Made by a program: the position numbers and the translations under genes. A model generated the notes under the pieces. That model was not told the DNA's origin. It searched no databases and saw only the letters and a list, made by a program, of their open reading frames with translations. This document shows positions 26,974-29,676 of a DNA stretch of 64,000 nt, piece by piece (within the stretch, counting starts at the first letter, position 1; each line of letters opens with the position of its first letter). Origin of the DNA: an uncultured bacterium (lineage in GTDB: Bacteria; Babelota; Babeliae; Babelales; Babelaceae); the NCBI GenBank assembly GCA_963819815.1, contig CAWFXL010000001.1, positions 607,027 to 671,026 on the forward strand, read 5' to 3'.

Positions 26974-29676
26974 ATGAAAAGTCAATTCATCAAGCTTTTA
27001 GCTATAACACTAGGTATGCTCACACCCTACTCATTGCAGGGTATGATAGTAGAGAAACAACTAACCGTTGCATCATCAGCTACAGAAACGTTTGATCTTC
27101 ATCTGCGTAATGAAAATCTAGATCCTGTGCATGTAGCACTCGTAGAACAAAAAGCGCCAACAGAAGGGGTTGCAAGCTGGAGGTTGGTCTCTGCTGTTAG
27201 CTCGTACGGATACACTAATGCACTCAGCACCCAATCACAAGAAATCAAACCATCTGAAACCATAACTATCAAAGTCCCTAAGATATCACCTATCTATAAA
27301 CGCTGGATTTGTTGGGACACTAAGCCCATTACAGGCCCGCAATGCGGCACGACTATTCCTCTTGAAAAAGAAGTACCCGAAAACGAAAAAACAATAGATA
27401 TTATAAGTGATGCACGTAAACTGCAACTAAAAGAGCAAACATCTAAAGAAAAGACCGAACAGCAGGTCGTTAATCTACGTGCTGAAATAAAGCCAATATC
27501 CGAAGAAGCTTCAAAAAGCGTTCTTCCACAAGATAGGTATCTTCTAAAAATTAAAAACCTTGATATGAAAACACTCCATGTAGCACTTGTTGCTGGAATA
27601 CCCCAACCTCAAACATGGGTGGGTTATTTGGTTTCATCGGTACCCTATACACTAGAACCGCTTACCGCCTCAGTGGAAATCCAAGCCGACAAAAAAATAC
27701 TGCTTACGCTTCCAAAAAATATTGATATAGCAAAGCTCTGGATCTATTGGGATACAAAGCCCATTGAATGCAAAGGTGTCTGCAATGGTTCTACCGTTGA
27801 GCTCAAGCCTACCGTTACTGAAGATAAGAAAACGGTTAAGCTAATGACTGAAGAGCGCAAATTATATTTGAATAACATGGCAGAACGGCTTATAGAGCGC
27901 AAACAAGGGCCTCAAACAGATAAATATGCACTAGTAACTTCTGGAGGCACCCTATCTGATGAGGAAAGCCGGACACTTGAAAATCGCGAACGTACAGTCA
28001 AAGAATCGGTACAGAGTATAACTGGCTCTGCCCACTCTATACCTCGTATTGGGATATGTCATAGTGGTGGCGGATTGCGCGCCATGTTCTCAGCTATTGG
28101 ATTATCTCAGGGACTTAATAGAGCAGGTCTTATAAATGCCTTCTTGTATGCCGCGGGATTATCTGGGTCGACCTGGTTCCTCATGAAATGGCTCGAACAA
28201 GGTGGCAGTCCAGATAAGCTCGATGAAATTGCAGAAACTTTGCGTGCCTCTATGGCAAAAGGACTCATACCTAAAGAACTTCTTGATCCCGTTACCAAAG
28301 AACTTAGTAACTGGCAAGCATTTAAAGAGCTTGCTTATGGAGGAGCACTCGATAAACATCCTAACTTTATGGCCCAATTTAAGGCAACCATCATCTGTCC
28401 AAATGGCGTATGTCTTAAAACAAATCCTTCATTAATTGATTTATGGGGCTACTTTTTGGGGCGACGTCTCTTTAAAGGTAATGAGAACAAATACCAATTT
28501 ACGTTATCATCGCTTCAAGCCACTGCTCAAAATGCAAAAATGCCTTTACCTATATTTACCGCTATAGATACTAGAGGGACAGAAGGTTATATTGAAAGTC
28601 TCACTAAATGGGCATGGAGCAATCACGAACAAGAACCACCAAAAAATTATAAGTTTCTTGAAGTTACTCCCTTTAATGCAGCTCTTCGCAGTAAACATAC
28701 ATTAAACGAGATTCCTCTGTGGGGATTAGGTCGGAAGTATAAGAGTGGGTGGCTTGACATCTATTCGATAAAAGAGCCAAGCCATAACTTCCAACCTTTT
28801 GCATCAACCAAGCAAATAGCTGGACAGCCCCAAACGACACGTATGGAATTTAGTCGAATAGAACCAAGTGCAACCCAATTACTCGGCGCCTTCGGTTCTG
28901 CATTTACCGTCTCACTGGGAGAGGTAACCAAGATGATGGAAACAACAATCGAGGCCGGTGCCCAAAAGGCACAATGGATTGCCTTAGGAGCACATGTCGT
29001 TGGTGCAGCAGTACCACACTTAAGGACGGTTGGCCAAGCTGTTGGAGCAGCAAGTGAGGTCATGAAGCATGTTTCTAAAACTCTTATAAAGTCTCAGTCT
29101 GATATCCAGTTTTTTGCTGGACTTGGACTTTATGATTTTTCTCGTGGCGGCGATGAACAGCTTGAATTGCGTGATGCGGGTGTCTTCTATAATCTTCCCT
29201 TACCTCCGCTCTTTGATAAGCGACGTGACCTTGATATCATACTCGTTCATGATACCAGTGGTGACTTACATGCGATGGAAGATGGAAGACCTATGATTGG
29301 TTCAGAGTTAGCAAAATTTGCACAATATCCACAGTTTGCCGAGAAAGCACTTCCCCATGATCTTAGAAATAACGCATCATTTAAAACTAAAATGGACGCA
29401 CTCTATAACCATAAGAAAATGTTGGCCGTATTTAATGATCCTCGTTCAGCAGATTATAATCCAGATGAGGTAACGGTAATTTATCTGCCAACCATCGCCC
29501 ATCCCAATGTCGCAGGACTTGAATGCAGTCCTACTGAGAAGTTTGGTACCTTCAAACTGCAGTATGATGCACCAGAATCTGAGCAGCTCATGCAGTATAA
29601 CAGGGTACTCGCAGAAAAAAATGCCGAAGAAATCAAAGAGATTATTAAGGCAAAAACTCAGGCAATGAACTCATAA
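26974..29676 (+). CDS. Secreted cPLA2-type (PLA2_B/lysophospholipase) phospholipase with two novel N-terminal repeat modules
   Basis: 900 aa with a signal peptide. Catalytic region: ICHSGGGLRAM (GGGxR oxyanion), AAGLSGSTWF (GxSGS nucleophile) and LRDAGVFYNLPLPPL...RDLDIILVHDTSGD (Asp motif), as in eukaryotic cytosolic PLA2. The N-terminus holds two ~130-aa repeats, each ending RWICWDTKPI / LWIYWDTKPI. Confidence 0.8.
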   Translation: MKSQFIKLLAITLGMLTPYSLQGMIVEKQLTVASSATETFDLHLRNENLDPVHVALVEQKAPTEGVASWRLVSAVSSYGYTNALSTQSQEIKPSETITIKVPKISPIYKRWICWDTKPITGPQCGTTIPLEKEVPENEKTIDIISDARKLQLKEQTSKEKTEQQVVNLRAEIKPISEEASKSVLPQDRYLLKIKNLDMKTLHVALVAGIPQPQTWVGYLVSSVPYTLEPLTASVEIQADKKILLTLPKNIDIAKLWIYWDTKPIECKGVCNGSTVELKPTVTEDKKTVKLMTEERKLYLNNMAERLIERKQGPQTDKYALVTSGGTLSDEESRTLENRERTVKESVQSITGSAHSIPRIGICHSGGGLRAMFSAIGLSQGLNRAGLINAFLYAAGLSGSTWFLMKWLEQGGSPDKLDEIAETLRASMAKGLIPKELLDPVTKELSNWQAFKELAYGGALDKHPNFMAQFKATIICPNGVCLKTNPSLIDLWGYFLGRRLFKGNENKYQFTLSSLQATAQNAKMPLPIFTAIDTRGTEGYIESLTKWAWSNHEQEPPKNYKFLEVTPFNAALRSKHTLNEIPLWGLGRKYKSGWLDIYSIKEPSHNFQPFASTKQIAGQPQTTRMEFSRIEPSATQLLGAFGSAFTVSLGEVTKMMETTIEAGAQKAQWIALGAHVVGAAVPHLRTVGQAVGAASEVMKHVSKTLIKSQSDIQFFAGLGLYDFSRGGDEQLELRDAGVFYNLPLPPLFDKRRDLDIILVHDTSGDLHAMEDGRPMIGSELAKFAQYPQFAEKALPHDLRNNASFKTKMDALYNHKKMLAVFNDPRSADYNPDEVTVIYLPTIAHPNVAGLECSPTEKFGTFKLQYDAPESEQLMQYNRVLAEKNAEEIKEIIKAKTQAMNS

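Follow-up and report, generated by a model that had tools for sequence, protein, structure and literature searches.

Two predicted exported lipases of the cytosolic phospholipase A2 family, with duplicated β-sandwich modules of two types, in a Dependentiae-like bacterium

Enzymes of the cytosolic phospholipase A2 (cPLA2) family are regarded as eukaryotic, and the known phospholipase effectors of bacteria are mostly of patatin-like, GDSL or PLD types. A 64,000-nucleotide stretch of bacterial DNA (contig CAWFXL010000001.1, 1.60 Mb long; the whole stretch is called the window here) raises the question of what a lipase gene with cPLA2 motifs, W1, is doing in such a genome, what the repeated modules in front of its catalytic domain are, and how it relates to a second lipase gene in the same window, W2. 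Our analysis reveals what is new at this locus: cPLA2-family enzymes with export signals in a Dependentiae-like bacterium, belonging to two deep clades, each of which is fused to its own duplicated β-sandwich module. The catalytic family itself is already known and is recognised automatically. The features of the two genes are as follows.

26974..29676, + strand: W1, lipase gene of the cPLA2 family, 900 amino acids (aa), ATG start, stop codon included (open reading frame, ORF; Pfam PLA2_B 7.2e-17; human cPLA2α, 1cjy, 1.3e-13)
26974..27042, + strand: W1 signal-peptide-like N-terminus, residues 1-23, MKSQFIKLLAITLGMLTPYSLQG, a basic n-region and then a hydrophobic core
27076..27435, + strand: W1 β-sandwich module 1, residues 35-154, with WICWDTKP at 111-118 (internal alignment; module profile match at 36-154; module hidden Markov model, HMM)
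27523..27876, + strand: W1 β-sandwich module 2, residues 184-301, with WIYWDTKP at 256-263, a C-x3-C loop at 265-270 and the C-terminal helix ERKLYLNN (AlphaFold2 model, 8 strands and helix)
27952..29673, + strand: W1 catalytic domain of cPLA2/PLA2_B type, residues 327-900 (start of the cPLA2α alignment, where W1 residue 327 equals chain residue 150; Pfam match)
28078..28080, + strand: codon of W1 Arg369 in SGGGLRAM, equivalent of cPLA2α Arg200 (alignment)
28162..28164, + strand: codon of W1 Ser397 in GLSGSTW, predicted nucleophile, equivalent of cPLA2α Ser228 (alignment; invariant in 9/9 sequences)
29173..29175, + strand: codon of W1 Asp734 in ELRDAG, predicted dyad partner, equivalent of cPLA2α Asp549 (alignment)
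46752..49322, + strand: W2, lipase gene of the cPLA2 family and distant paralogue of W1, 856 aa, stop codon included (ORF; Pfam PLA2_B 1.3e-27; 1cjy 5.7e-24)
46752..46811, + strand: W2 signal-peptide-like N-terminus, residues 1-20, ending in LFSAQS (sequence)
46929..47255, + strand: W2 β-module 1, residues 60-168, GWHIRNISNQELYAAWY (HMM domain independent E-value, i-E-value, 6.9e-30; AlphaFold2 model, 8 strands)
47256..47603, + strand: W2 β-module 2, residues 169-284, IRLNNTTSKELYAALY (HMM domain i-E-value 1.1e-24; alignment)
47808..49319, + strand: W2 catalytic domain, residues 353-856 (Pfam, invariant columns, 1cjy alignment)
47949-47951, 48042-48044 and 48795-48797, + strand: codons of W2 R400, S431 and D682 (alignment)

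Both lipases score above the gathering cut-off of 23 bits for PLA2_B (PF01735), W1 with 61.4 bits and W2 with 96.9 bits, as do four relatives (P0007, P0010, P0012 and L001), while neither has a match to Patatin (PF01734) even at E<=1 or to any NCBIfam model. Among proteins of solved structure, human cPLA2α and cPLA2δ are the nearest to both in sequence. These results agree with a preliminary description of this DNA, which had assigned the core of W1 to the cPLA2/PLA2_B rather than the patatin type, and all the catalytic motifs that it had quoted for W1 are located in the translation: SGGGLRAM at residues 364-371, GLSGSTW at 395-401, RDAGVFYNLPLPP at 733-745 and DLDIILVHDTSGD at 752-764. SGGGLRAM, GLSGSTW and LRDAG of W1 align on the segments of cPLA2α that bear its catalytic residues, Arg200, Ser228 and Asp549 in the numbering of 1CJY. 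S397 of W1 and S431 of W2 both align with the GLSGSTW of 1cjy and are invariant in their family alignments; the SGGGxR loop, which serves oxyanion and phosphate binding (S364-R369 in W1, S395-R400 in W2), is invariant in the W1 family alignment; D734 of W1 (RDAG) aligns with VVDSG of 1cjy, and D682 of W2 (LIDGG) is invariant in the W2 family alignment. The predicted catalytic set, R369/S397/D734 in W1 and R400/S431/D682 in W2, is therefore kept across both families, and no loss of the Ser/Asp dyad is seen. Ser and Asp lie 337 residues apart in W1 and 251 in W2, the spacing in cPLA2α being ~321; a value near that of cPLA2α suggests that a cap-sized insertion has been retained, at least in W1. 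The most hydrophobic stretch of W1, residues 665-683 (AQWIALGAHVVGAAVPHL), is conserved within its clade and may act as a lid. At the level of sequence, the catalytic domains of W1 and W2 are shown to be homologous to that of eukaryotic cPLA2, and because of this homology we reject the convergent origin that had been offered as an option.

The second lipase at 46752..49322 had been described simply as a paralogue. Its ORF and its homology to W1 stand, but the relationship is distant, with 24% identity over 249 catalytic-domain residues (E 8e-11), and its N-terminal modules are of a different type. In a neighbour-joining tree of 20 catalytic domains the W1 clade and the W2 clade are each supported at 100%, the latter made up of W2 and P0015-P0017 and joined by P0018 as its sister at 96%. 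W2 is nearer to eukaryotic cPLA2 than W1 is; W1 is highly diverged from it, and Pfam aligns W1 in parts only.

What, then, are the modules in front of these catalytic domains? In W1, residues ~35-154 and ~184-301 share 35% identity over 123 aa (E 1e-16), confirming that there are two homologous copies, although each measures ~118-120 aa and not the 130 first estimated. The motif said to end both modules is only partly common to them: (A/E)RKL(Q/Y)L is present in each and is modelled as a helix, but the C-x3-C loop (ECKGVC, 265-270) occurs in module 2 only, module 1 carrying WICWDTKPITGPQC in its place. The signature of the module is W-x-[CYF]-W-D-x-[KR]-P. Among the 248 ORFs of the window, an HMM of the module matches W1 alone, at two places with domain i-E-values of 1.1e-47 and 1.1e-41, and in the relatives of W1 the copy number varies, with one module in P0004 and P0006, two in W1 and three in P0002, P0003 and P0005. 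The proposed novelty of the module is borne out: it has no match in Pfam or NCBIfam, module profile searches of PDB sequences gave nothing meaningful, and a module profile run against 1.84 billion representative proteins returned 10 matches, ~8 of them real. All but one of the real matches are fused, in 1 to 3 copies, to a lipase of the W1 clade (PLA2_B), and the search added two further proteins that combine module and PLA2_B (P0010 and P0012). P0011 is a 322-aa protein of exported type that lacks a catalytic domain and consists of two WxxWDxKP-type modules with a low-complexity linker between them, a make-up suggesting that the module may be an autonomous binding unit. The two remaining matches, to filamin-type repeats in a 5434-aa protein (P0009) and to a Gram-positive surface protein, are probably motif coincidences. 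In P0009, a giant eukaryote-like protein, 22 filamin-type repeats are matched via Y-x-V-x-V-D-x-K-P-I, which could hint at an Ig-like or filamin-like ancestry of the module.

AlphaFold2, supplied with an alignment of 13 modules, models W1 module 2 as eight β-strands and a C-terminal helix, with a predicted local distance difference test score (pLDDT) of 90.4 and a predicted template-modelling score of 0.80. With structural significance set at a template-modelling (TM) score of TM>=0.5 and E<=1e-3, a Foldseek search of this model against PDB and BFVD found nothing at E<=1e-3. The best PDB neighbours, with TM 0.31-0.48, are cytolysin domain 4, aegerolysin, actinoporin, TssJ and the β-domain of pVHL, and more than 20 chains of cholesterol-dependent cytolysins are among the top matches, again weak (TM 0.34-0.46, E 4.6e-3 to 4e-2). 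Weak as they are, most of the top neighbours are membrane-binding β-sandwiches. Cytolysin domain 4, aegerolysins and actinoporins share with the module a similar size and an all-β sandwich; their matches to it lie at TM 0.37-0.46 and E 5e-3 to 5e-2, with a root-mean-square deviation of 7-9 Å and 6-12% identity, short of the usual thresholds, so that any homology would be tentative. Because all structural matches of the modules lie below threshold, we treat a membrane-binding role as a lead only. The modules do stand N-terminal to the catalytic core, at the place of the C2 domain of cPLA2, as had been noted. The suggestion that they might be C2-like in fold fares less well: the W1 module is a β-sandwich, but C2 is absent from its top 50 Foldseek matches, and neither W1 nor W2 has a Pfam match to PF00168 (C2) at E<=1. 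The W1 module is, therefore, a real, extremely rare and unannotated β-sandwich domain that is tied to a lipase clade and occupies the position of C2 in cPLA2 while not being detectably C2. Since it is compact, confidently modelled and essentially without relatives, it is a candidate for a new targeting domain, one that may act on membranes.

In W2, too, the N-terminal region has arisen by duplication in tandem, although the repeated unit is another one, G-W-x-I-x-N-x-T … Y-x-A-W-Y, which is present in two copies in W2 and in three in P0015 and P0017. Its AlphaFold2 model (pLDDT 83.8) has eight strands in the same order as those of the W1 module. Foldseek found nothing at E<=1e-3 with this model; its non-significant neighbours, unlike those of the W1 module, are MSP and PapD-like folds, and C2 appears only at probability 0.1-0.2 with TM 0.2-0.28. 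The link between the two module types is weak (hhalign P 0.0015-0.003, probability 4-17%; HMM cross-hit E 0.17), and the other bacterial relatives (P0008, P0018, P0019, P0021, P0023 and L001) have unrelated N-terminal regions or almost none. It is possible, though we offer this tentatively, that the WxxWDxKP module, which may form a single, very diverged family with the W2-type module, is a new β-sandwich for recognising lipids or membranes that arose within a Dependentiae lineage and took the place of C2 in a cPLA2 acquired from a eukaryote. If true, this would be an independent re-invention of the arrangement of a β-sandwich targeting domain and a cPLA2 core, in 1 to 3 copies and also stand-alone, as in P0011. 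A different explanation, which we regard as a minority view that deserves attention, is that the N-terminal modules are Ig-like spacer, adhesion or protein-binding repeats that would, for example, anchor the enzyme on the surface of the bacterium or attach it to a protein of the host. The variation from 1 to 3 copies among orthologues is like that of surface-protein repeats, and both the weak pick-up of filamin-type Ig repeats by the module profile and the Ig character of the MSP and PapD-like folds nearest to the W2 module point the same way; it fits less well that the W1 module has its best matches, weak like all module matches, among membrane-binding sandwiches.

The kind of bacterium that carries these genes bears on what they might do. 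The nearest named relatives of SufB from the window belong to Candidatus Dependentiae (76% and 70%) and Candidatus Babeliales (71%), and judging from this marker and the gene content the bacterium is probably a member of the Dependentiae (TM6), with a likely intracellular life. The window encodes an 819-aa ankyrin protein, WD40 and Ulp1-like proteins and a mitochondrial-carrier protein (4.6e-23), a gene content that would suit a parasite living inside the cells of protists. Very little is known of how Dependentiae, which parasitise protists obligately, manipulate their hosts. A published description has them depend on the host, rely on effectors that leave through Sec and take up phospholipids (PMC6561590). 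Of the 20 bacterial family proteins, 18 have a basic segment and then a hydrophobic core at the N-terminus, and the other two are apparently truncated gene calls; such N-termini argue strongly for export of W1- and W2-type proteins, whereas secretion into the host would be a further inference. In P0018 the hydrophobic segment is followed by a lipobox-like 'APAC', suggesting that at least one relative may be anchored in a membrane. When the preliminary description called these proteins secreted, host-membrane-attacking and targeted, it used terms that we too infer, since they rest on signal-peptide-like N-termini and on a deduced lifestyle.

Taking these lines together, we lean towards the view, which we consider somewhat probable, that W1 and W2 act in parallel as Sec-exported PLA2_B acyl-ester hydrolases with which a Dependentiae-like intracellular bacterium attacks host lipids. 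The lipase would be exported via Sec and would then reach host membranes or host-derived lipids, possibly through release by outer-membrane vesicles or another route. The β-sandwich modules would hold the enzyme on a membrane or another surface ligand, the job of C2 in cPLA2, and their copy number (1-3) may tune avidity or reach. The Ser/Asp dyad would then cleave fatty acyl esters of glycerophospholipids, with phospholipase A and/or lysophospholipase activity, and this cleavage may injure or reshape the membrane of the host, while the fatty acids or lysolipids that it releases may supply a parasite of minimal metabolism. Some of our own results weigh against this view: all structural matches of the modules fall short of TM 0.5 and exceed E 1e-3, no calcium-binding signature of C2 type was found, and the assignment to Dependentiae depends on gene content and a single marker with 70-76% identity.

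By itself, a signal peptide points no further than the periplasm, and it is conceivable, although we think it rather unlikely, that W1 and W2 are periplasmic or surface (lyso)phospholipases that process lipids taken up from the host, as nutrients or as material for the envelope of the bacterium itself. Such a role would suit bacteria that lack most metabolism and import phospholipids (PMC6561590), the lipobox-like sequence of P0018 and the presence of lysophospholipases in the PLA2_B family (Pfam description); modules of variable copy number and positions that shift among effector-like genes, however, suit genes of host interaction better. We consider it improbable that acyl transfer (transacylase activity), and not hydrolysis, is the main reaction of the catalytic domain. 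Several cPLA2 enzymes do have transacylase activity, with the Ser/Asp acyl-enzyme mechanism common to the family, cPLA2ε being an N-acyltransferase, and sequence cannot separate the two activities; nothing specific speaks for transfer, however, and hydrolysis is the default of the family.

Comparison with known systems helps to place W1 and W2. Like the eukaryotic group IV cPLA2 enzymes (α, δ, ζ; 1CJY, 5IXC), both have a homologous catalytic domain with SGGGxRAM, GLSGSTW and D-x-G, and W1 also shares with cPLA2 a similar Ser-to-Asp spacing and a β-sandwich domain N-terminal to the catalytic domain. Unlike the cytosolic cPLA2 enzymes, W1 and W2 are bacterial and carry an export signal, and the N-terminal domain of W1 is not detectably C2, is duplicated and variable in number, and has no evident calcium-binding loops. 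The secreted phospholipase B and lysophospholipases of fungi (Plb1-type) resemble W1 and W2 in having PF01735 and an N-terminal signal peptide; they differ in that the motifs and best matches of W1 and W2 are of cPLA2 type (turtle cPLA2ζ and a Phycomyces cPLA2-like protein), and we know of no β-sandwich repeats in fungal phospholipase B. Patatin-like effectors such as ExoU, VipD and Rickettsia Pat1/2 (PF01734) are also Ser/Asp-dyad lipases, which intracellular or pathogenic bacteria turn against host membranes, and the role predicted for W1 and W2 would probably be similar; in contrast to W1 and W2, which have Sec-type signal peptides and no PF01734, these effectors enter the host by injection through type III or type IV systems. 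That intracellular bacteria acquire eukaryote-like domains is well known, and because the catalytic family is also well understood, we regard the value of the finding as moderate. Nevertheless, the pair of exported cPLA2-type lipases provides assayable candidates for membrane attack or lipid scavenging by Dependentiae.

On the contig, W1 has Ku/LigD and an unknown protein of 534 aa on one side and umuDC on the other. The pair of Ku and a LigD-like ligase is at 23097-24868 and umuD/umuC (S24 peptidase and IMS polymerase) at 29756-31425, and the same flanks are seen in L003, a 413-kb ENA contig. The W1 orthologue of L003 (8001-11088) occupies the same position and has three modules, but two frameshifts break it into pieces in frames 3, 2 and 1, so that it is either a pseudogene or hit by assembly errors. 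W2 lies between sufS and sufD, and in the related contig L007 the PLA2_B gene stands at yet another place, with dnaJ and DUF6629 as its neighbours. The window and L007 share the backbone gyrB-tilS-PBP4 … umuDC-rnhB-dnaJ … nurA … sufS-sufD-sufB, and since the lipases of the window, L003 and L007 take three positions in a conserved backbone, we regard them as mobile accessory genes. The GC content of the lipase genes (0.422 for W1, 0.429 for W2) and that of their third codon positions (GC3; 0.336 and 0.380) equal those of housekeeping genes, from which we conclude that any transfer is old. That we are dealing with a patatin-like effector of ExoU/VipD type or with eukaryotic contamination of the assembly is hardly credible: Ser/Asp dyad chemistry is common to patatin and cPLA2 and the domain is typical of eukaryotes, but a patatin assignment is ruled out by the lack of any match at E<=1, with GLSGS and DAG/DGG sitting within the PLA2_B alignment, and contamination by the bacterial flanks (umuDC, Ku/LigD, sufS, sufD), by synteny in other contigs and by the housekeeping-like GC and GC3, and both genes have bacterial-type signal peptides and no introns.

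To our knowledge PF01735 is overwhelmingly eukaryotic, and in the searchable literature we found no description of bacterial PF01735 proteins or of cPLA2-like effectors. A census of species-representative genomes, among which the genome of the window itself did not appear, found two distant loci only, both in metagenome-assembled genomes labelled 'uncultured Pseudomonadota'; an exact look-up of W1 in assemblies gave no entry, and two scans of viral contigs and one of a metagenome gave no confirmed relatives, each scan using two short peptide patterns and hence being no census. As the bacterial members found are few and come from symbiont-like genomes, transfer from a eukaryote followed by diversification is an economical and plausible reading. 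The catalytic-domain tree does not tell in which direction or how often transfer took place, because its deep nodes have 11-62% support and only two of its 20 sequences are eukaryotic.

A candidate promoter precedes W1:

26890..26918, + strand: σ70-like promoter candidate for W1, TTGACA-17-TATATT (consensus scan, 11/12 matches; 56 nucleotides upstream of the ATG)

It is a candidate only, because the total of σ70-type sites in the region by the same scan is not above that of shuffles. An intrinsic terminator was sought 3' of W1 and none was found.

Around W2, the suf genes (sufC, sufB … sufD … sufS; window 45234-62362) are split apart by effector-like insertions, namely an AAA-ATPase, a 762-aa WD40 protein, the mitochondrial-carrier protein (55173-56069), a 341-aa unknown protein, a 666-aa exported β-propeller-like protein and W2 itself, whereas sufS, sufD and sufB are almost contiguous in L007. 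The 666-aa protein (49402-51402), which has a signal-peptide-like start and repeated WD40-like segments, is encoded on the same strand 80 nucleotides downstream of W2, and the two genes may be co-transcribed. Elsewhere in the window, 32786-34243 and 35680-37056 encode paralogous exported proteins (485 and 458 aa) with a common C-terminal region, and one of them has a weak Ulp1/C48 protease match (E 0.0026), so that the two could be effectors resembling deubiquitinases or deSUMOylases. W1 and W2 are intact; gyrB (10824-13241) is in at least six reading-frame fragments and glmS (5039-6884) in two, and because both of these genes are essential, the breaks are probably assembly indel errors and not decay. 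Finally, a TadA-type deaminase fused to a C-terminal DksA/TraR C4 zinc finger is encoded at 7541-8389.

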